A stretch of DNA of 62,920 nt, counting the filler, from Globobulimina sp. (taxonomy: Eukaryota), in NCBI GenBank assembly GCA_003354225.1. It is 47 parts of 47 records of this genome, joined end to end, with 100 filler letters (N's around TTAATTAATTAA, not from the genome) between each part and the next. Parts side by side here need not be neighbours in the genome. Positions count along the whole stretch, not along the records: positions 52,301 to 53,540 come from PIVH01020305.1; 46 more parts are not named here. The stretch is one strand, 5' to 3'. This document shows positions 6,611-54,880 of this stretch, one piece after another. The notes under the pieces were generated by a model that saw nothing but the letters and a program-made list of their open reading frames with translations, made no database searches and was not told the DNA's origin. A program made the position numbers and the translations under genes. How positions within the stretch are numbered: the first letter of the stretch is position 1; each line of letters opens with the position of its first letter.

Positions 6611-6710
6611 NNNNNNNNNNNNNNNNNNNNNNNNNNNNNNNNNNNNNNNNNNNNTTAATTAATTAANNNNNNNNNNNNNNNNNNNNNNNNNNNNNNNNNN
6701 NNNNNNNNNN

Positions 6711-7678
6711 GTGTTGTGCTGAATCCGGTTGCAACCTACATCTCGGATGTCAAGAAAATGGTTAAACCTGATTACTCGAAAATCAGCGCCCAACATTATC
6801 TCGACCAGAATACTCACGACTGGAACATCAATTCAAGGCTTCCCGCAGCTTCTATTATCACAACATACGGATGCCCCTATAATTGTGTCTTTTGTGCCAC
6901 CCGAACGATCAGCGGGCGGAAAATTGTTGTCCGGCCACTGGAAGATATTATTGAAGAAATTGAATATTTGATAAATATTCATGGGATAAAAGATCTGATT
7001 TTTCTTGATGACAACATTTCTTATAACCGGCGACATTTTATCGCACTATTAAATACCTTCATTGATCGATCGTATAATATAGCATGGAAGGCAGCCGGAA
7101 TAGCCGTGTGGGACCTTGATGATGAACTTCTGGAATTAATGAAGAAAAGTGGTTGCACACGTATATGTATTTCTGCTGAATCCGGCAGTCAGCGCGTTTT
7201 AAAAAAGATAATCCGAAAGCCGGTGAAACTGGAAAAAATTCCTGGCATTGTAGAGAAATGTAAAGACCTGGGCATCGAAATTTTGTCAAACTTTGTTATT
7301 GGGCTTCCCGGTGAAACCTGGGATGAGTTGAGGGAAACCTTTCGTTATGCAGACGCTTGTGATTTCGATGTAGTCCATTTCCATATTGCTACACCCCTTC
7401 CAAAAACGGATTTATATAATATGGCTAAAGAACAAAATCTGTTACCATCCGATTTTAATTTTACAAATCCAAAAAGTTTTGGTTGGGGACAGGGATTTAT
7501 AATTACGGACCATTTCACACCGTTTGATCTGATGGTACTTCGGGCATTTGAGTGGGACAGGATTAATTTTTCCTCCCCGGAGAAAATTTCTAAAGTTGCT
7601 GATATCTACTCCATGACTGTTGCTGAATTGAATGACCACCGAAAACAAACGATCAAAAAATTAGGACTCCATTGTTAA
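6711..7678 (+). CDS. Bacterial B12-binding radical SAM protein, 5' partial
   Basis: CxxxCxxC motif (TTYGCPYNCVFC), FLDDNI, ISAESGSQRVL, FVIGLPGET and ATPLPKT; intronless; followed by a downstream gene with a ribosome-binding-site-like motif. Confidence 0.92.
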
Positions 7679-7718
7679 GTATACCCTTTCTCACGGGTGT
7701 GTTTGAAAGGCACCAGTT

Positions 7719-7952
7719 GTGATGCGCTACTGCCCTATCTGCGAAAAAACAGAATACACCCAGGTCTGGAAAGTAAATGAGAGCCCTCTCCTGCATCTGG
7801 TTCGCAATAATTCAGACATTACACAGAATCTTTTTGCTCCTCTGGAAATTGTTCGATGCTGTTACTGCGGGCATATGTATAATCGTTGTTTTGACATGAA
7901 AAAATGGGAATTCATATATCAGTTTAATGCCATCACAAACACACCTGTGCAC
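7719..7952 (+). CDS. Bacterial class I SAM-dependent methyltransferase, N-terminal zinc-binding part, 3' partial
   Basis: CPIC...PLEIVRCCYCGHMYN, typical of the N-terminus of NDP-sugar C-methyltransferase-like proteins; AAAGG about 10 nt upstream; operon-like spacing. Confidence 0.65.
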
Positions 7953-9415: not shown

Positions 9416-10636
9416 ATGAGTTGGGCTTCCATTGTAGAACAATCTGTTACAAACACGAAAGAATTAACACCTGATCGAGCTGGTGATTTTGTAATGATAA
9501 ATGAAAAGCAAACAGAAGAAGAGCATGCAATAATATTAGAGGAGACAGAGAAAGAATGTGAGTCTTACAATTATAAACATTTAAGCAATGAAGAATTAAT
9601 TTTATTAATCTCAGGATTCGCACGTAATATTCAGTTATTATCAATTGTTCCTACTGATGTTATTAATTGTATTTCATTGTATCATTGGTCAAAATTATAT
9701 GATGATTTCAATGTATTTAGATTTAAAGGTAAACTCAAAGACAATGACACCAAGGAAAATTTTTCCGGTTTAAAATATTATGTTATGCCATTAAATGAAT
9801 TAAAAAGGAAATATTTGTTACCATTTACTGAAATAAAAACAGATGACAATAATACAAAATTTGGTAAATACAGTAGTTTCCAATCAAAACATTGTCCAAA
9901 ATTTATTAAAGAAGAACAATGTTTGGTTCATGAAGTAGAATTAGACAAAAACAATGAAAATATTTATCATTTAATGGATTCTTTTGTTGTCAATAAATTT
10001 ATTCAACTATTTTCAGAAAATAAAGCTGGAAATCATCGGCTAAACCGAACCGAAACTGTACCGGCCGGGAAAGGACCATATCGAGCTGGATTTCGTTGTG
10101 TTGGCCATGTAAAACAACCAAAAAATTCAGACAAACAATATTTTAATACAAAAATGGAACGGCTAAAAGTGTGGAAATTTATTGGTGGAAGTTTTGATAC
10201 ATTGGTTCTGAACAAAAATGATTTTTTTACAAAATGTTTATTAAAACAATTTGATTTTTTCGAGTTGAGTGCATTTGATGATGATAAAGTATTAATTGAT
10301 GAGGCTGTTTCTTTATTGTTTGCTGCATTAAACTCAAGACGTGGTGACTGCGATGGTTGGATGACTTTGGACGATTTGCGTTGGTGGGACTGGGATGTAA
10401 CAGGTTTAAATTGTAAAGAGATTGTTTGTGATTTGTTGTATCGTCAAATGAAAATAAAAATGAATACAGAAATAAACGATGAACATTGGATTATAAAAAC
10501 ATTATTTGAAATTAGATGCGAATTAAATATTGATGAAAAACTAAAAAATAAAAAATTAAATATTGATGACGAACAAAAAAATCAAATAAAAGAAGAAAAT
10601 CAATTGTATGAAGGGACTTGGACCTCGTGGAGGGAG
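9416..10636 (+). CDS. Hypothetical protein with a recurrent L-x-x-G-F/Y-x-R...I/V-P-x-D-V-I-x-x-I-x-x-Y motif, 3' partial
   Basis: Intronless ORF of about 400 codons; motif LISGFARNIQLLSIVPTDVINCISLY. Confidence 0.7.
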
Positions 10637-13492: not shown

Positions 13493-14661
13493 TTACTCCT
13501 CATTAAAATAAAAGTATTGCGCATAATGTTCCAAGATTGCGATTGCATTCTCTTTTTGTAACTTTCCTAATAATTTACGATACGTATAACATTTTTGTTG
13601 ATCGGGATCCAAATTCTTTTGACTACACTTTGCATCGATAATATAATTTAATGTTTTTCTACTTTCATAGCTCATACCTCCCATTGATTCAAATACTATC
13701 GGTTTGTATTTGTAATTTAAATCAACATTGTCGATAATCGCACGATATTTTCTTGTTTTTGTTGCATGGTACAAATCAGCACAAACTAATCTGTTTTCCG
13801 CACTTTTTCTCAATTTACTCTCTCTGTTCGATGTGCCAATGTCACTGACTATGTTAGTTATTCCTATATCCAATGCACCGTCGTATCTGGGAAATAATTT
13901 GTATACCATAACATCTGCCGGTTTCTTCAATGTGTTTTCGACCAAGCCGTTGAGTTCAAGGTCGCAATTAAAGCCAGCTCCTTTACATATATCCATTACT
14001 GCTACTGCCAAAGCATTGTGGCGACCAATTCTACCATGTCCAAAGGGACAATTTAAGCCATGGTCTCCAAACACATCCAATTTTGCTGTGCATAATAAAC
14101 AATCTGACTCGCCATTCATAATTGGCATATTGAGTCTTCTTTTCATCAATAATCTGAACTGAATGTTATCAAAATCTACGCCAAAACCAACCGCGGGATT
14201 CACTTTAAGCCACGAATCACATTTCCAATTTGATACTGCTTTCAATAAAGCCTTACCTCGGTCATTATATATGTTATATAAATCACTTAGATTTGACTTA
14301 TCAATGCGATCCAATAAATCCGATTGCAAATAACTTAAATTGAGTTCTTGGTCGATTCTAAACTGGGTGATTGGGTGATTGGGCGCATGCTTAGACCGCC
14401 TCGTTTACACGAAATACTTGCATGTTTTACAGTGATATCTGACATTGTTTGACCAATTATTTTACTATAAATACCAATAAATATCTCATCAAATTTGATT
14501 TGCCATTTATTAATCCCGTTGTACGATAAGTTGCGTGCCAAGTAATTAATTTTATTAATATTATAAAAATTTGATAGTAATACGTATTGATGTTGGATTG
14601 ATTTGAGTTTATGTATCATTTTGATGTTTTTAAGCCACTTTGTAACTTTATCATACATAAA
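13493..14661 (-). mobile_element. Non-LTR retrotransposon with a restriction-like endonuclease (CRE-clade-like): post-RT region, CCHC knuckle and RLE; frameshifted
   Basis: KINYLARN...HASISCKRGGL, then CLLC...DVFGDHGLNC, RHNAL, KKPAD, ALDIGIT, KTRKY and PIVFESMGG. Confidence 0.88.
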
Positions 14662-17784: not shown

Positions 17785-18684
17785 ATGTCATCAACTGTCA
17801 AAGTAATTACTAGTACAGATATCAAGTATGAGCCTTTGTTGCATCATGGTTGCAAAGGATGGAAGAAAAGTTTATTTTTAGATGTTGATAAGATGGAAGA
17901 TTATATATGCTCACATTGTCGCAATGTATGTAAAGATGCTGTAGAGTTAGGATGTGATCATAGTGATGAACAAATTGAGCTATTTTGTAATTTCTGTCTA
18001 CAAGAAATAGTGCAATCAAACGGAGGAAATTGTCCGATAGATTCATCTCATTCACATCCACCCATTCAATCAAACCGTCAATGTCGAAGACAAATACTTA
18101 AATTGAAAGTATGTGATATTAAATGATGTTTATTTCTTTTATTCTTTATCATCAAATTAGAATCCAATATCCATTGAAAGGTTATGTGTCGCTATTCAAG
18201 AATGTCTGAATTTGTTGAACAAAGTTCAAATGATAATAATATGGGAATTTATGACACTGCGGACATCAAAGAAGAAGGAAGTTATAACACTGATAAAAAA
18301 TATTGTGATTGGAAAGGTTCATTGCATGAACTCATCACTACTCATCTAAAACAATGCAAATGTGCTTCAAAACATGAATTGTTTATCAATATGACACATA
18401 TAAATCAGAAAATTGCAGTAATTGAGAAATATATTCAAAATAATACAGCTATAAATAAAGAGTTTGACCATTTAAAAAACACTATATTTACCCAACAAAA
18501 TAAAATGAATCAAAAAATAGAAGCACAAAATGAAGAAATTATTAATTTGACACAAAAATTACAAAAAATTGAACGTCAACTAAATGAGCAAGGAACCATA
18601 CTTCGAGCATTAGAAACGCAGCCACTTGAAACAAAAAATGATATCAAAACAGATGACTATGCGAAATATAGAAAGCAATATAAA
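17785..18684 (+). CDS. RING finger plus TRAF-type zinc finger plus coiled-coil protein; intron 18109-18180; 3' partial
   Basis: CSHC...C...GCDH...FCNFCL...CPID (RING), CDWKGSLHELITTHLKQC (zf-TRAF-like), then heptad-rich region. Confidence 0.85.
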
Positions 18685-36217: not shown

Positions 36218-36980
36218 TAAAAGATTAAGTTAATAAAAAAAAACTGAACAAAGCTCTGGCAGATATAATTTTTGCTTGTGTTTCTCTCTCTGCTTCGGAA
36301 GCAGCGGCCATTGCTCTTTGCATGTTAAGCGGCAATGTAACGTCTCTAATTTCGACAGCAGGCACTCTGACACCCCAACTGCTCGTATCCTGTTCAATAC
36401 TTTTTCTAATTTCATCATTGACCACATTCCTTCGAGAAATAATTGTTTCTAAATCATATTTACCGATAACACCTCGTAATGTGGTGGCTGCAATGTTTCT
36501 AAATGCAAATTTATAATTATCCACTTCTAATATAGCCCGTATTGGATCAGATACTTTCATAAAAACAACAGCATCGACAGTACAGGTCACAGAATCTTTG
36601 GTCATCATCTGTTGTGGGATTAAATTGAATGTTAAAATTCGTAAATCAACCACTTCAATGGCATCAATTAAACAATTTATGACAAATAAACCAGGCCCTT
36701 TTGCAGTACCACATATTTTACCAAATCTAAATATTAATGCTCTTTCATATTCTTTGACAGTTTTACACATTGGAATCCATAAAAACGGAATTAAATGAAG
36801 CGACCAGGTAATAAATGTTAAAAACGTTTCACAGAATGACAGCTTTATTTCTTCATGGTTTTGATAATTTGATTTCAGCCCATCTTGCATTCTACGTACT
36901 TCCCCATGGAATGAATCTTGGTTTGGCTTTACATCCAAGGCAATTGCTGATGGATATGCTTTTTCATTGTTTGTATTCAT
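36218..36980 (-). CDS. Stomatin / Band 7 (SPFH) family protein, 3' partial
   Basis: VKEYERALIFRFGK, GPGLF, VDLR, TKDSVTCTVDAVV, AATTLR, WGVRVPAVEIRDV and MQRAMAAASEAERE. Confidence 0.95.
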
Positions 36981-37608
36981 TTTGAGATATTCAGATTGAG
37001 TCGCAATGATATTATTAATTCCTTTTTTTGGCTATTTATAATGCGATATTTCGTACAGCCATTATCAAATGTCAGCTGCCATAAAAGAAAGTTGAAAGTT
37101 GCTACAAAGTTTACCTCCTGCCGTCTGGCGATTGGATTTTAGTCAAATAAAAAAAAGAAAACTGTTTTCCCATTTTCAACTAAAACTGTTTCCCATTATA
37201 AGCATCATTGATGGATGTTGTTAGTTTTTCACATGAATTCAACTATATAAGCATTTATTTAAGAGCATGTATGCGGTCATTTCTCCATAAGGTTCTATTT
37301 TTTGTATCCTCGCACTCAGTGTACAATTTGTTGGAAGATCCCTTTATGTGCGAGGATAGAAAAAATAGAACACTTCTGGAGAAATGACCGCATGCTCTTC
37401 TACAATATTACTATTTATAACATCACAATATTACTTCTAATGACACGCTCATTCGATGNNNNNNNNNNNNNNNNNNNNNNNNNNNNNNNNNNNNNNNNNN
37501 NNTTAATTAATTAANNNNNNNNNNNNNNNNNNNNNNNNNNNNNNNNNNNNNNNNNNNNAGGATTAATATTAAACAGAGAAAATATTATTTGCCTCATATT
37601 ATTTACAG

Positions 37609-40140: not shown

Positions 40141-40240
40141 NNNNNNNNNNNNNNNNNNNNNNNNNNNNNNNNNNNNNNNNNNNNTTAATTAATTAANNNN
40201 NNNNNNNNNNNNNNNNNNNNNNNNNNNNNNNNNNNNNNNN

Positions 40241-40900
40241 AGAGCGATCCTGGAACACTATGATAGCAATGATAGAGCTCGAAGAGCGATCCTGGAGCGC
40301 TATGATAGCAATGATAGAGCTCGAAGAGTGATCCTGGAGCACTATGATAGCAATGATAGAGCTCGAAGAGCGATCCTGGAGCGCTATGATAGCCAGGATA
40401 GATCTCGAAGAGCGATCCTGGAGCGATATGATAGCTAGGATAGAGATCAAAGAGCGATCCTGGAGCGATATGATAGCCAGGATAGAGATCAAAGAGCGAT
40501 CCTGGAGCGATATGATAGCTAGGATAGAGATCAAAGAGCGATCCCGGAGTGCTATGATAGACATGATAGAGCTCAATGAGCGATCCCGGAGCGCTATGAT
40601 AGCTAGGATAGAGCTCAATGAGCGATCATGGAGCACTATGATAGCTAGGATAGAGCTCAATGAGCGATCATGGAGCGATATGATAGCTAGGATAGAGATC
40701 AAAGAGCGATCCTGGAGCGCTATGATAGCTAGGATAGGGATCAATGAGCGATCATGGAGCGCTATGATAGCCAGGATAGAGCTCAATGAGCGATCCTGGA
40801 GCACTATGATAGCTAGGATAGGGATCAATGAGCGATCCCGGAGCGCTATGATAGTCAGGATAGAGCTCAATGAGCAATCCGGGAGCGCTATGATAGCTAT
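40241..40900. repeat. 39-bp tandem minisatellite, about 17 copies, truncated by the contig start
   Basis: Unit approximately agagcgatcctggagcgctatgatagctaggatagagctca repeated head to tail without spacers. Confidence 0.95.
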
Positions 40901-41209
40901 TCATTGACTCTTAGAGCGATCATTACTGTACAAGAATAGCTATGATAGAGACAGGATAGTCATGATAGAGACTAGGAATAGAGAAATGAATGCTATTAAG
41001 ATTACAATCATAGATGATGAGCAGTTTCTTTTGTACTATACCAACTATTTGCTGCTTCTTTGAGTGACCATACAGTACAATAATTTAACCAACAAAACAA
41101 TTTTATTATTTTTATTTGATAAAAAATGTTAATGCTATCAAGAACGAATATTCAATGTATGAAAACAGTCAGATTATTATTATTTTATAACACATAGCAT
41201 CATTTCACA

Positions 41210-41480
41210 GGCACCTCACTGTCAAACATACGTCGGGCCCTCATTATGAAGCGTTTTTGTGGATTCAATGCCCTGTTCATGGCTACCGCATCATCTAGTA
41301 ATTTTCGCCATTTTCTTCTGCGCTCGCTTCACCCCCATCTTCTGTCACAACCGATTCCTCATCTTCATCCGATTTGTCGCGATCCTCGTCCATTTCTTTG
41401 TCGTCCTCCCCCTCCAACATATCATCCTCATCTTCGGTCTTATCTTCTTCTTCTACTGGCTTTTCGTCATTGTCATTGTC
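41210..41480 (-). CDS. C-terminal acidic low-complexity region of an unknown protein
   Basis: Minus frame DNDNDEKPVEEEDKTEDEDDMLEGEDDKEM...; the end of the frame is uncertain. Confidence 0.4.
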
Positions 41481-44292: not shown

Positions 44293-44934
44293 ATGGTTTT
44301 GTGCCGTTTTTGTAACAAGAAATTTGCCAGAAATGGCAATCTCAAGCAACATATCAGAATCCATACCAATGAGAGACCATTCAAATGTTCTTTTTGTATC
44401 AAAGCATTTCGGCAAAAACACAGGTATGTTCTGTATACATTTTGTTAATCTGTATACTTGAGCAACTTGAGCAACATAAAAATAAATTAAATATTAATAT
44501 ACAGTTTACGTGATCATTTACGCATTCATACGGGGGAGAAACCGTATGCCTGTATGTACTGTGTACTATGTACTATGCAGCCATACCTATACTAAGCACG
44601 CAAACAATTGCAACAAAAACATAACAACATATTTAGGTAAATTCTGTCCGACCAAATTTGCGGCGAGATGTAATGTTTAGTTTTTTTAATATTTTTAATT
44701 GTATTATCAATATTACATATTTACATATTTAGCTTATAGTACATGAACGAATTCATAGTTACATATTTGTACATTATAATTATGTTATTTTTTGCAATTT
44801 GCTGACTTAAATATAATTTAATAGCTGGCGCGCGACCTTATCAATGTCAACAATGTGACAAAAAATATGTTTCCAAGTCGGGATTGAACGCCCATCTAAA
44901 AAAATTTCATTTGGAATATCAACAAAAAATATGA
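44293..44934 (+). CDS. Small C2H2 (Kruppel-type) zinc-finger protein with four fingers and four introns; not in the ORF track
   Basis: CRFCNKKF...[19 protein letters not shown]...|[20 protein letters not shown]...|[19 protein letters not shown]...[13 protein letters not shown] introns include 44424-44504 and 44552-44636. Confidence 0.9.
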
Positions 44935-45600: not shown

Positions 45601-46800
45601 CTCCCGAAGAACAGGCAATATGTTATAATTTATGAATGTTTTTAGTTTTTAAATATAACATATATGTTTTTGATGAAATAAACAGTTATTGGCAGAAAAA
45701 ATGAGTGAAGAAAAGGATATAAATAACTTTGGTATTTCTGAAAGATTTTTTTATTCGTTATATGACATTGTTGAGTTACAGCCGCGTTTTAAAAAATGGC
45801 TATTTAAGTTACAATTTGATGAAAAAATAAAGAGTTTGCAACCACAGATTACGGCGATTAAGGAAGCAAAAAGTGTGATTGTTAAAAGTAAGAATTTGAA
45901 ACAAATATTTAGTGTATTGTTGGCATTTGGAAATCATATGAATTATGGGAATAAATTGAAAGGAAATTGCTATGGCTTTCATTTGACGGATTTGTCACTG
46001 CTGCCACAAATTAAAACATTTGATAAATCGCAGACTTTTCCAATGTTTTTATATTCTTTTTTTGAAGATAGATATACGTATTTGTTGAATGTAATAAATG
46101 AGTTTTGTTCAGTGCAAAAAGCGTCAAATATTGGAGTGGAAAATATAGATAAATTATATCATGAAATAGTCGATGAAATGAAGGATTTGGAGGCTATGAT
46201 TGATAGATTTAAGGAAGAATATATTGAGACGTTGAGTGATGACGATAAGTTTTTGAAAGAAATGCAAATATTCCAAGGTATGTTATTGTGTACAATTTAA
46301 TGAAAGCGGAGTTATATTAAATAAATAAAGGTATGGCGAGAAAGAAAATGTTTAAAGTAAAATTTCAATATAAATTATTGCATAAATGGGAGAAGCAATT
46401 AATTGAATATTTTGCATATGATGTTGATGAGCATGTGAATATTACGAAAATATTAAAAGATTTATATTTATTCGTTGAAATGATGCAGCACAGTAAAATA
46501 AAATTGAATGATTTAGCAAAACAAAGGAAGAGAAGAGCCTCATTAAGCAAACGAAAAAATTCATTCCGTCGTCGAAGGTCAAGATCGAGATCTAAGTCGC
46601 CGACAAAATCAGAGGATGGGAATAAGGATTCGAAAAATATGAATGTCGGTTTGTTATCAAGTTATTCTAAGTTAATACCAATGAATAACAAATCCTATGC
46701 AAATGTGGATGAATCATTTGTAGTCATAATTGAGAACAGTAAAAAAATGCCATCTAAGAAATTGCCGCCAAAACCAAAGAAATCAAAACGAGATGTTTGA
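45601..46800 (+). CDS. Formin, FH2 domain (paralog B); GC-AG intron 45615-45685 and GT-AG intron about 46278-46330
   Basis: ERFFYSLYD, LAFGNHMNYG..KGNCYGFHL and LPQIKTFD; colinear with paralog A; basic C-terminal tail. Confidence 0.92.
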
Positions 46801-46940: not shown

Positions 46941-47868
46941 TGTGGAACCTCATCCCCAGATTGCTGTGGTGCCCGCTCTTCTGAACTACAATGCGAGATG
47001 TCAAGAAAATGTGCTTTCCATGTCAAATATCTGGATAAAGGACTATCAATACCCTGCCGCGAATGCCGTGATTCGTCAACGATACATTGAAGGAAGCAAA
47101 CGGCTTACACTCTATGGTCATTTGAACCATGATGTCTTCACAACACAGCGACTTTTGTTGCCAAAAGTTTCATTGCAAATAAAGATGAGACGCAGCGACC
47201 CAGCTTATTGTCTCATTCGCAGTGAAGGAGTGGAAGATGAGTACAAAATCGAGATTCAATCTTGCAAACTAAATGTTCGACGTGTTTTGTACTATGACTC
47301 TGCACTCGAACGATTGGACAAACGTCTTAAGACACAGCCCGTTCAATATCCATACACCCAAACGACTGTCCACCGATTTCCGATACCTCAAGGATCAACA
47401 TATATGAGTTCGCTCAGCACCGGTTGGGGACCTGCTGCGAAGCGTGCTTTCTTTGCAATCTGTGAGCCAGACAGCATCGAAGGACGAAACTGGGAAAACA
47501 ATCCAATGATTTTCCCCGCATCCGAATATAAAGTCAACTATGTACAGTTCTGCTCAAAATACGATGACACTATCCAAGAAAGACCTTACAAACCAGACTT
47601 TGAGAACAAGAGTGCCAATAAAGCTTACACAGAGCTTGTGCATGTCGTTACAGATGGATTTCGCAGTGGACTTACCCCAGGTCTAAGTTCCGATGATTTC
47701 GTTGGACAGTATGGACTGTTCGCTATGGGAAGCATGCACGATTCCTCCGATTTGGCCATCAAGATTGGATTCAAAAAGGGAACTCCGCGACCTTTGATGG
47801 GTCTCATATTTGTTCAAAGGGATGCTTATTTCACTATTACTAATGTTGGCGGTATTAAGGATGCCTAA
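46941..47868 (+). mobile_element. Polinton/Maverick (adintovirus-type) major capsid protein, double jelly-roll, 5' partial
   Basis: LNHDVFTTQRLLLPKVSLQIKMRRS...CL, YKIEI...LNVRRV, QYPY, FPIPQG, NPMIF, PYKPDF and AY..L match the Polinton PY / F54H12.2-like capsid pattern; intronless, higher GC than the host contigs. Confidence 0.8.
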
Positions 47869-47963
47869 AATGTTGATTTATGCAAATGTGTAACGCTGTT
47901 GTACAGGATATATAAAGAAAACTAAAAATGTGTATTGCTGTTGTATAGAATATATAAAGATAA

Positions 47964-48180
47964 CTAGAAATGTGTATTAATGTTGTGTGTAAATAATAAA
48001 ATATGTAAATATGTGCCTCTATAAATAGATATTCCCATCCTTTTCAAGTCAGTTGTCACAATTGTAATCACCTGTGCGGTCGTATCATACTTAAAATGCT
48101 CATTACTGTAAGCAAAGATCTCTGCGATGCCAGGGACAGGCACAAAAAGGCTAGCCATTTCATCAATAGACTGCCTAAAA
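47964..48180 (-). CDS. Convergent hypothetical ORF end next to the capsid gene
   Basis: Frame open from the contig end (FRQSIDEMASLFVP...) to 47964. Confidence 0.3.
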
Positions 48181-52300: not shown

Positions 52301-53540
52301 CAATTTGTTGGTCTGTGCTGTATTTTTCCAACAGTTCACGTCTGGATTCTTCAGGTTTGTATGCCTTTGGCCAACCTGCAAACATTAAAAGTAACACTGC
52401 CAAAACATAATCAGTGTGCTTACCTCCAGCTTGAAACTTTTTCACATATGATGGTACAAGTTGGGACCTAAACAAATCCTTGCTTCTCTGGTCTCTACCC
52501 CAATGCCATACCTAAAGAATTAACTGTAACAACTCAAGTGTTGTTGTTGAGTCACATACCTCATAAATTTCTTGCATGACATAACCCAGCTCAAGGGCTT
52601 TCTGAATTTCCACTGACACAAATGTGTCTTCCAAACAGCGCTCTTCATCATTGTGAGTACACTTCTCACTACTCTCACCATTATAGATGCAGGTCGAGCA
52701 CAACCCAAACACAACTTTGTCATGTGCAAAAACAGGCAATACAGGTAAAAGCAGTCTGCAATTGACACATTGATTCTGAACACAAGAACATGGTCACTTA
52801 CTGTTTTGGTGGCAAAATTCTGCATTTCAAAATGCCAAAAATCTCATGCAATGGTGGGAAGTCATCAAAGAAAATCTGTGGATGACCCACAGGGTACCAT
52901 TGATCATCTTCAGTACAACAGTTCCTGTAATGTCATGGTTATGTAGCAGTAATACTGCAAGATAAAAGTACTTACACTGAGGGATATAAACTGGTAAAGT
53001 CCATGTATTTGATGATTTCCCCATCCTTTAATTTGTAATACATTCTGATACAGTTGGTGCGTCCACCACGCAATGAGTCCCTTGGGGCCAATGGTGGCAC
53101 CTTTTGCAGCCTTGCTCTCATCTTCTCAACAAAAGCCTTCATTTCAGGGTTTTGTTTCTGCTGTTCACGAAATTGGCAGCTGTATATTGATTTCACATAA
53201 AAGCCATTGGCCTCCAAAAACTCCTTTTTGGCTTTAGTTTTCTGTTGTCTTTCATGATAAGTGAATGGATTGCCATTGCTATCAACGCGCTGTATATGCT
53301 CTGTGCCATTTTTGAAACAATCAGTGCATCCATGATAGCTGCACCTGTAATGCTACTGTTAGCTTAAATTATCTAGAAACTTGACACTAACCCGTTGTAT
53401 TCAAAAGCTGTTAATCCTGCATTTACAGCTGCCACGCCATCTAAGTAATGCCTTCCAACCTTAATCTCATTACCATTTCTACCATGATAAATTTCAACAC
53501 CAGTATCCTTTGACAACCAGAGCATCCATGTGAGAGCTTT
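52301..53540 (-). mobile_element. Polinton/Maverick-type protein-primed DNA polymerase B with an inserted Vsr-like nuclease domain, split by five introns (53345-53391, 52925-52975, 52756-52801, 52512-52559, 52376-52423); partial at both ends
   Basis: Spliced product: ...LDG...AFEYNG|CSYHGC...PRDSLRGGRTN...YMDFTSLYPSV|N...YPVGHP...GILKCRILPPKQ|LLLPVLP...CSTC...CTH...EIQKALELGY..QEIYE|VWHW...AG|GWP. Confidence 0.9.
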
Positions 53541-53847
53541 NNNNNNNNNNNNNNNNNNNNNNNNNNNNNNNNNNNNNNNNNNNNTTAATTAATTAANNNN
53601 NNNNNNNNNNNNNNNNNNNNNNNNNNNNNNNNNNNNNNNNAATAAACACCTTCCTCCCTTGAATAGACCCACACCCAAAGGACCTTTGAAAAAATAGAGC
53701 CCCTTGATTGATAAATTTTATCTGCACGGACAGAAGTACATACAGAAAGGTACAATACTTGCTCCGAAGAGCCCTTTAACGTATCTACCATATACTAACA
53801 ACACATAAAAATATATACTAATAGTCAAGAAAACAAATAGATACAAA

Positions 53848-54880
53848 TTAAACATCAACAACAGATATAATGTTAGGCTGAAGAGCAAACATTCGGTCAT
53901 AGAAATCATTACTTAATATTCGACGCCTAAAACTAACATAATCAAGTAATATATCAGCATCTGTACATTCATTCCATAAAGAACTACACATATTGACACA
54001 TGAGTACTTTGTCCGTTCCCGTTTACATAAAGGTATTAATAATTTATTACTATTATTGACACGCCTACTATTTCTAGCAACAGATTGAATAAAAACCCCA
54101 CTAGGTACATGTCTGATGTTGTTAAGATATTTATACATCAATAGCAAACGATTTTGCATTGTTACACGACAAATAGAATGGAGACATGTTCTATTTAAAA
54201 GCTCAGAATATGGTAGGTCAAAACGGTTAGTTATCATTTTGCACGCAAATTTTTGTGCCCTTTCTAGCAAAATACGATCTTTCTTAAAATATGGATATAC
54301 AACAGGTGAACCGTACATTAACACAGATCTTATAAGTGAAACATACAGTAATCTTAGTGTGTTGGGGGGTACATATTTTCGGACAGACCGGCACAAGCAC
54401 CCTAAAGTTGACCTGGCCCGGGCCACTACCTTCTGAGTATGAACAGAAAATGATAACCCAGGATCCAGGTGAACTCCAAGGTATTTGTACGAGTCAGTCT
54501 TTTCAATAGGCACCCCATCAACACATGGTGCAGCCATAAAAACAGGTGTTGGAGAGATGTTCAAGACCATATGCTGAGTTTTGGTTATATTAAGTTTAAG
54601 AGAAATAGATTTAAAATAGTCAGCTATGGCCTGAACATCCCTCCCGAGTTCGGCCTCCGAAGTTGCAGAGTCCATTGGCTTCAAATAGCACAAATCGTCA
54701 GCAAAGAGCAATATTTCAGCTCCATCTGACAATTTGACTTTAGAAACCCCGTTTACGTAGGAAATAAACAGTGGAGGCCCCAAAATGGAACCCTGGCCGA
54801 TTCCGCTGATTACTTCCCGAAAACTGGAAACGGCATCTCCGACTCGAACACACTGTAAACGCCCATCAAAATACGATTTA
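53848..54880 (-). mobile_element. Non-LTR retrotransposon reverse transcriptase (CR1/L2/Jockey-like), C-terminal part and 3' flank
   Basis: GRLQCVRV...SGIGQGSILGPPLF, LFADD, LKLNITKT, YKYLGV, LYVSLIRSVLMYG and LERAQ. Confidence 0.92.

Follow-up and report, generated by a model that had tools for sequence, protein, structure and literature searches.

Protein-primed family-B DNA polymerases (PolBs) of the Maverick/Polinton type have mostly been described from genes without introns. In the available part of the respective texts, the open reading frames (ORFs) of intact vertebrate Mavericks are intronless, "in agreement with" the founding paper (PMC8097293), a Caenorhabditis Maverick has intronless core genes next to cargo genes with introns (bioRxiv 10.1101/2022.07.12.499685), and endogenous viruses "do not contain introns", a statement used there to justify prokaryotic gene callers (PMC10120064). 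Viral insertions in Amoebidium are marked by their lack of introns (PMC11244446), and the paper describing adintoviruses holds no word starting with 'splic', its sole 'intron' belonging to group II intron maturases (PMC8502044). A VSR domain occurs in one subgroup of the Polinton polymerases called pPolB2, from a marine nematode and marine molluscs, as far as the available part of that report goes (PMC10748475). In this study we analysed a stretch of 62,920 nucleotides (nt) from the Globobulimina sp. assembly GCA_003354225.1, referred to here as the window. One of its contigs (PIVH01020305.1) appears to encode a fragment of such a polymerase with a Vsr-like nuclease insert, and the coding sequence is interrupted by five segments that are best explained as short spliceosomal introns. 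A preliminary description of this contig, made from the DNA alone, had remarked that polymerase genes of this kind are usually intronless, which agrees with what the available parts of PMC8097293, bioRxiv 10.1101/2022.07.12.499685 and PMC10120064 say.

The window consists of 47 unrelated contigs of 1,240-1,242 nt each, sorted by size and separated by TTAATTAATTAA-and-N spacers of 100 nt. Because it is a chain of unlinked contigs, the fact that two of them lie side by side says nothing about their place in the genome. The polymerase fragment takes up one entire contig (52301-53540) with the gene on the minus strand; the GC content of the contig is 40%, with 41% in the exons and 32-39% in the introns. 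Excision of five GT-AG segments (47, 51, 46, 48 and 48 nt) leaves 1,000 nt with 333 codons and no stop. There are no further stops or frameshifts across these codons, and the spliced frame is open at both ends of the contig. A read-derived contig, with its loose end at 53539, carries the open frame past position 53540. All five introns have extended donors and YAG acceptors, and their density amounts to one per ~200 nt of coding sequence, five in 1.24 kb. Segments, lengths, donors, acceptors and the CTAAC string in the first segment are exactly as the preliminary description had given them, here placed on the minus strand. The motifs it had named can likewise all be read in the frames of the contig: FEYNG/CSYHGC, GGRT, DFTSLYPS, YPVGHP, CSTC...CTH and ALELGY..E/VWHW, with slashes at the introns.

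A scan of 1.84 billion representative proteins returned 1,289 relatives of exon 2 at E<=1e-3, among them 160 at E<=1e-10. Identity reaches 51% in the best relative, and proteins of 1,200-1,650 amino acids (aa) are frequent. The few relatives with a name belong to a coral, a frog (42% identical to exon 2), a dragonfly and a beetle, others are from metagenomes; one metagenome source labels its relative a very short patch repair endonuclease. The Pfam family DNA_pol_B_2 (PF03175) was found in all six full-length relatives that were scanned (35-45% identical), with 70-155 bits in two or three stretches, and the insert of these six proteins sits between profile positions ~196 and 210. When homologue proteins were compared with the contig, 186 of 188 matched, and in each of the 111 proteins that matched in two or more segments these were colinear with it. 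Some of the proteins compared belong to the same clusters, and the rows are therefore not independent. The preliminary description had taken the contig for a Polinton/Maverick-type protein-primed PolB fragment and had let this identification hang on a colinear alignment with such polymerases, which is what the 111 multi-segment matches and the relatives with DNA_pol_B_2 provide. Within alignment A2 the residues D, T, S, L, Y and P of the motif A string DFTSLYPS are invariant. Homologue P0001 extends to a motif-B-like stretch past the aligned part, and the contig ends before there. The alignments are best explained if the contig encodes an internal quarter of a protein-primed family-B polymerase, approximately residues 750-1,080 of a protein of 1,100-1,600 aa.

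The insert itself resembles Vsr endonuclease. We compared a profile of the insert region (A1, built from 26 sequences) with 177,635 sequences of solved structures, and the top three matches were 1ODG, 1VSR and 1CW0, all of them Vsr endonuclease. With E values of 0.008-0.011 the match is statistically marginal; it covers profile positions 18-87, and the alignment passes through the HGC..H..C and W-E-C stretches. The nuclease insert that had been proposed from its motif is thus consistent with these three structures as well as with the VSR domains of one pPolB2 subgroup in the available part of PMC10748475. The best explanation is that the fragment belongs to a polymerase subtype with a Vsr-like endonuclease between its exonuclease and polymerase halves.

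How likely is it that such a frame arises by chance? As a control we determined the fewest GT-AG removals (40-60 nt each, at most 12 allowed) that give a stop-free path through the contig. Four were needed on the minus strand and 12 on the plus strand. Among 300 dinucleotide shuffles none needed fewer than seven, and 99 failed within 12. The homologues gave a second line of evidence. For introns 1 and 3, which shift the frame, we counted the homologue residues skipped at the junction minus the exon codons left unaligned, zero meaning an exact junction. The junction of intron 1 was exact, with no missing or extra residue, in 38 of the 45 homologues matching both sides, and exon 1 aligns to the homologue residues immediately upstream of the HGC motif; the junction of intron 3 was exact in 86 of 93. 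Introns 2 and 4 preserve the frame but contain stops; here a gap in the homologue took up 80% or more of the intron codons in 84 of 130 and 42 of 44 spanning matches, respectively. The length of intron 5 is divisible by three and no in-frame stop occurs in it, which means that the frame stays open even with this intron in place. Its removal nevertheless improved the alignment of 45 of the 50 homologues reaching this region (worse in two, tied in three), and the mean alignment score was 57.1 with intron 5 removed vs 44.8 with it retained.

The interrupted frame is confirmed as a real observation, far beyond chance. It could still be asked whether the contig is a decaying pseudogene in which five chance insertions happen to resemble introns, the more so since, according to the available part of PMC8097293, degradation has affected the majority of endogenous Maverick copies, and insertions in them are labelled 'introns' by gene-wise tools. 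We consider this very improbable. All five segments are GT-AG with extended donors, fall within 46-51 nt and have boundaries that are exact against the homologues; none of the 300 shuffles reaches a comparable open path; no other stop or frameshift interrupts the 333 codons; and the differences between copies, described below, are mostly synonymous. The best explanation of the GT-AG ends, the extended donor and the restoration of frame and homology on removal is that the segments are short U2-type GT-AG introns. In every in-silico test, be it with shuffles, homologue junctions or copies, they behave as the spliceosomal introns for which they had initially been taken.

An introner origin of these introns was considered and rejected, as the five introns are no more alike than shuffles: all ten pairs lie within an absolute z of 2 of the shuffled controls. 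Not being copies of each other, they are not introners like those of dinoflagellate Maverick-like proviruses. Two relatives, P0050 (36% identical) and P0002 (48-51%), have an ORF that starts exactly at the position of intron 1. Its first residues look like the translation of a 3' intron end followed by an arginine, at a place occupied by glycine in intron-less relatives, and P0050 is then uninterrupted over the sites of introns 2, 3 and 4. These ORF starts hint that one intron is old and shared and that others were gained later. When the ORF ends of relatives were mapped relative to exon 2 there was no clear pile-up, and only single cases were suggestive. Scans with single proteins found no DNA of a relative, neither in metagenome contigs (exon 2 and P0063) nor in viral contigs (exon 2, P0009 and P0032). 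A scan with alignment A2 yielded one contig of 30 kb from a giant-virus bin (L001), which at 10001-10351 is 26% identical to exon 2, including the region of the Vsr-like motif.

The gene is present in several versions. Run X1, possibly from the source sample, contains 52% of the sampled words of the contig, and run X2, from a different study and organism, contains 5%. Over the length of the contig X1 gave 14 short contigs, of which four are >99%, six 95-99%, three 90-95% and one <90% identical to it; this range of identities indicates that several diverged copies coexist. None of the 14 joins across an intron, and the four runs compared gave DNA-type contigs only; among the listed runs that contain the contig, none is recorded as RNA. 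The X1 copies covering introns 1 and 5 retain the intron. Intron 5 exists in these copies as versions of 47, 48 and 50 nt, and all three X1 indels fall there; in a coding segment such length differences would disrupt the reading frame. Splice-adjacent changes in X1 keep the consensus (GTAAGC to GTGAGC at the donor of intron 5, CAG to TAG), and a diverged copy of intron 1 has kept its donor and CTAAC and has a TAG acceptor. The 33 listed X1 substitutions comprise 11 in introns and 22 in exons. Fourteen of the exon substitutions are synonymous and eight non-synonymous, compared with a random synonymous share of 0.197 (binomial p = 8e-6), an excess that is somewhat inflated by transition bias. 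In X2 a contig of 151 nt covers exon 4 (52557-52710), from which it differs by 8 mismatches and by a net loss of 3 nt that keeps the frame; its listed changes, three synonymous and four non-synonymous, are too few for interpretation. The X2 piece indicates that a second data set contains a gene closely related to this polymerase gene. Repetition in the genome, a trait of Polinton/Maverick elements, is seen here in the 14 X1 contigs at several identity levels. Diverged copies in one sample together with the synonymous excess favour an element or a gene family.

If it were a gene family, it might be the host's own: a Maverick polymerase could have been domesticated as a host gene or small host gene family and could have gained its introns as a resident nuclear gene. 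The intron density of ~1 per 200 nt of coding sequence and intron sizes like those of the candidate host introns elsewhere in the window would fit such a history, as would the splice sites conserved among copies, and the core genes of active Mavericks have been reported to be intronless. The synonymous excess between copies would fit as well. However, it is also expected for copies descending from active master elements, and copies that differ by <1% to >10% within one sample are more typical of a repeat family. In addition, a run that bears the name of another organism contains a piece of ~93% similarity, and a domesticated pPolB was not found in a full-text literature search. We therefore regard domestication as unlikely.

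Another contig of the window (46941-48180, 41% GC) might be of viral origin as well. It holds a capsid-like ORF on the plus strand (46942-47865) of 308 aa, which is open at the contig start and has eight relatives with 40-78% identity. Compared with Pfam it matched no family. Its protein-feature neighbours are clusters with double-jelly-roll domains (10-17% of members) or with giant-virus capsid domains. The AlphaFold model of the ORF has a mean predicted local distance difference test (pLDDT) score of 49.6. Its Foldseek matches were consistently to capsid proteins of giant viruses, MELD viruses, adenoviruses, adomaviruses, an adintovirus and a virophage, with template modelling (TM) scores of 0.3-0.4; because of the low pLDDT these matches lend weak support. 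In all probability the assembly contains a virus-like element to which the ORF belongs as a capsid gene, unlinked to the polymerase contig. The ORF is followed by an AT-rich spacer with TATA-like and AATAAA-like strings.

A double-jelly-roll capsid-like ORF of similar GC content (41%) on another contig would also fit a different origin of the polymerase, from an adintovirus-like genome that exists in the sample as a free virus without integration and relies on the host nucleus for the splicing of its transcripts. Full-length relatives of the polymerase lie on metagenome contigs of 11-21 kb resembling complete small virus genomes, and no host flank is seen within the 1.24-kb contig. Yet these full-length relatives are single uninterrupted ORFs of 1,270-1,594 aa and hence intronless. 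A virus genome limited in size would also pay a high price for five introns in every 1.2 kb. Coexisting copies that differ by up to ~12% at low depth look more like genomic repeats. A free virus is, in our judgement, quite improbable.

We consider it likely, though by no means certain, that the contig holds the polymerase gene of a multi-copy Maverick/Polinton-type element, Vsr-bearing and with short introns, which depends on host splicing. The gene would be transcribed in the nucleus, and polymerase would be made only once the host spliceosome has excised the introns. The element would be copied as DNA, so that every copy would inherit the introns, and the polymerase would replicate it through protein priming. 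The Vsr-like domain might provide a nicking activity, possibly for initiation or for the repair of T:G mismatches in methylated element DNA.

Several points weigh against such an element. The contig comprises only 1.24 kb, in which terminal repeats, integrase, ATPase, protease and flanking host DNA are not seen, and membership in a mobile element rests on polymerase type and copy number. Core Maverick genes are described as intronless in vertebrates and nematodes, which gives introns a low prior and makes a domesticated gene a real alternative. With Pfam DNA_pol_B_2, exon 2 scored 17.2 bits, the cut-off being 25.8; none of the remaining five exon pieces had a Pfam match. Intron 5 was gapped by BLAST in only 4 of 28 spanning matches, and a clear CTAAC branch-like site is found in intron 1 alone among the five. 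Splicing of the polymerase transcript is something that we infer from DNA. Finally, the capsid-like ORF has no intron over 924 nt; if one element held both this ORF and the polymerase, such a difference between them would be strange. A more far-reaching idea, that there is a Maverick/Polinton lineage with a host-like intron density in a core replication gene, several copies of which are still under purifying selection, is possible but has to be called tentative. The features of the polymerase contig and the candidate introns of other contigs are listed in Table 1.

Table 1. Positions in the window of the putative polymerase gene parts and of candidate introns in other contigs
Feature	Position	Strand	Length	Description
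Exon 1	53392..53540	-		N-terminal part of Vsr-like insert, ends ...LDG...FEYNG; open at contig end
Intron 1	53391-53345	-	47 nt	Phase 2, GTTAGT...CTAAC...CAG; splits Vsr-like motif
Exon 2	52976..53344	-	122 aa	Remaining Vsr-like insert (CSYHGCTDC...), GGRT, motif A DFTSLYPS
Intron 2	52975-52925	-	51 nt	GTAAGT...CAG; three in-frame stops
Exon 3	52802..52924	-		YPVGHP...ILPPKQ
Intron 3	52801-52756	-	46 nt	GTAAGT...CAG; frame-shifting
Exon 4	52560..52755	-		CSTC...CTH cysteine/histidine cluster, ALELGY...EIYE
Intron 4	52559-52512	-	48 nt	GTATGT...TAG; one in-frame stop
Exon 5	52424..52511	-		VWHW...KKFQAG
Intron 5	52423-52376	-	48 nt	GTAAGC...CAG; zero in-frame stops
Exon 6	52301..52375	-		Open at contig end; stops short of polymerase motifs B and C
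Vsr-like endonuclease insert	53134..53500 (approximate limits)	-		Interrupted by intron 1; profile A1 match
Polymerase motif A DFTSLYPS	52978..53001	-		Read directly in frame
Candidate intron	18109-18160		52 nt	Frame-consistent heuristic
Candidate intron	46278-46330		53 nt	Frame-consistent heuristic, inspected by hand
Candidate intron	32878-32824		55 nt	Frame-consistent heuristic
Candidate intron	44424-44504		81 nt	Frame-consistent heuristic

Which organism carries the polymerase gene? Most contigs of the window have 28-35% GC and long uninterrupted ORFs, and asparagine runs occur. For a stomatin-like ORF (36225-37031, minus strand) the best named match is a transcript of the foraminifer Sorites with 60% identity, while matches without a name reach 71-76%. 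The dominant genome of the window looks foraminifer-like. In its general features it is similar to Reticulomyxa filosa, a foraminifer for which 35% GC, 3 exons per gene and introns averaging 86 bp have been tabulated (PMC7826189). The four candidate introns of other contigs have 18-23% GC, with the donor GTATGT in three and GTTTGC in one. The preliminary description had held that the polymerase introns are shorter and less AT-rich than those of the dominant genome and that the host is probably a different eukaryote. Less AT-rich they are (32-39% vs 18-23% GC). In length they differ little: the candidate introns, at 52, 53 and 55 nt (one 81 nt), belong to the same size class, and with this the argument for a different host falls away. 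The polymerase introns are less AT-rich, but so is their contig, so that the AT difference does not separate hosts, and neither do the 3' ends of the introns. A tentative lead comes from the protein features of exon 2, whose neighbours are short DNA_pol_B_2 clusters; the members with a label, few in number, are mainly nematodes or arthropods. Nematode introns also measure ~50 nt. As host of the polymerase gene, the dominant protist and a co-sampled small animal have roughly equal odds, and the host of the intron-dense lineage may be a foraminifer-like protist.

Some further contigs of the window hold ORFs of other kinds. On contig 53641-54880 a 343-aa ORF (53851-54879, minus strand), open at the contig end, carries the C-terminal portion of a reverse transcriptase domain (RVT_1, E 6e-9) and is a retrotransposon fragment. 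Tandem repeats at 40193-40907 (contig 40241-41480, 43% GC) are open on both strands, and the ORFs of this array, of 235 aa and 191 aa, consist of repeated ...AIIALQDRSL... units. An ORF with CxxxCxxC at 6659-7678 on the plus strand (contig 6711-7952, 40% GC) is radical-SAM-like by eye and may be bacterial or transferred. A 303-aa ORF on the minus strand (13496-14404) has the cysteine/histidine pattern C..C..GDH..C..RHN and a weak sub-threshold Pfam match; possibly it is part of a mobile element.

Surveys for endogenous DNA viruses use prokaryotic ORF finders and treat the absence of introns as a hallmark (PMC10120064, in its available part; bioRxiv 10.1101/2025.04.19.649669). Such pipelines would break up a Maverick polymerase gene that is interrupted by an intron about every 200 nt of its coding sequence, and might overlook or discard it. 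Should several copies of the gene still be under selection, these surveys could lack entire lineages. Intron-dense elements, if they exist as proposed here, would depend on the host spliceosome and would be invisible to prokaryote-style ORF callers. A dependence on nuclear splicing would argue for nuclear transcription and a long stay in an intron-gaining genome, and against a purely cytoplasmic or virophage-like cycle. In a full-text search, with most subscription journals and supplements outside it, we found provisionally no description of an intron-dense Maverick/Polinton polymerase or of intron-dense core genes. It may be that annotated gene models in public genomes already hold such introns silently.

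Host nuclear splicing of viral family-B polymerases has precedents: the chlorella virus DNA polymerase gene has a short spliceosomal intron, and adenovirus polymerase transcripts are spliced. Those genes belong to other virus groups and have one or few introns, whereas here there is ~1 per 200 nt. Virus-like elements with spliceosomal-type introns are also known from dinoflagellates, where the introns of Maverick-Polinton-like proviruses are interrelated copies of intron-generating transposons, according to the available parts of PMC11957031 / PMC12166617; the five introns described here lack mutual similarity. Polinton polymerases have been listed from Rhizaria, including the foraminifer Reticulomyxa filosa and Paulinella, and were divided into metazoan-type and rhizarian-type groups (bioRxiv 10.1101/809541). 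The dominant genome of our window looks foraminifer-like too; the available part of that text describes the polymerases without gene structures or introns. The Mavericks of vertebrates and Caenorhabditis share the polymerase family with our fragment, but their core genes including the polymerase are given as intronless in the available texts (PMC8097293; bioRxiv 10.1101/2022.07.12.499685), in contrast to the five introns in 1.24 kb seen here. Similar in domain content is the VSR-domain pPolB2 of Trissonchulus latispiculum and marine molluscs, likewise a Polinton protein-primed PolB with an inserted Vsr-type endonuclease. The structure superimposed in that report, 1VSR, is among the E. coli Vsr structures that our insert profile matches; the likeness is one of domain and description, and spliceosomal introns are not mentioned in the available part of the text (PMC10748475). 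In conclusion, the family is a known one, a Vsr-bearing protein-primed PolB of the Maverick/Polinton type, and what is unusual about this member are the dense, short introns that are kept across diverged copies.

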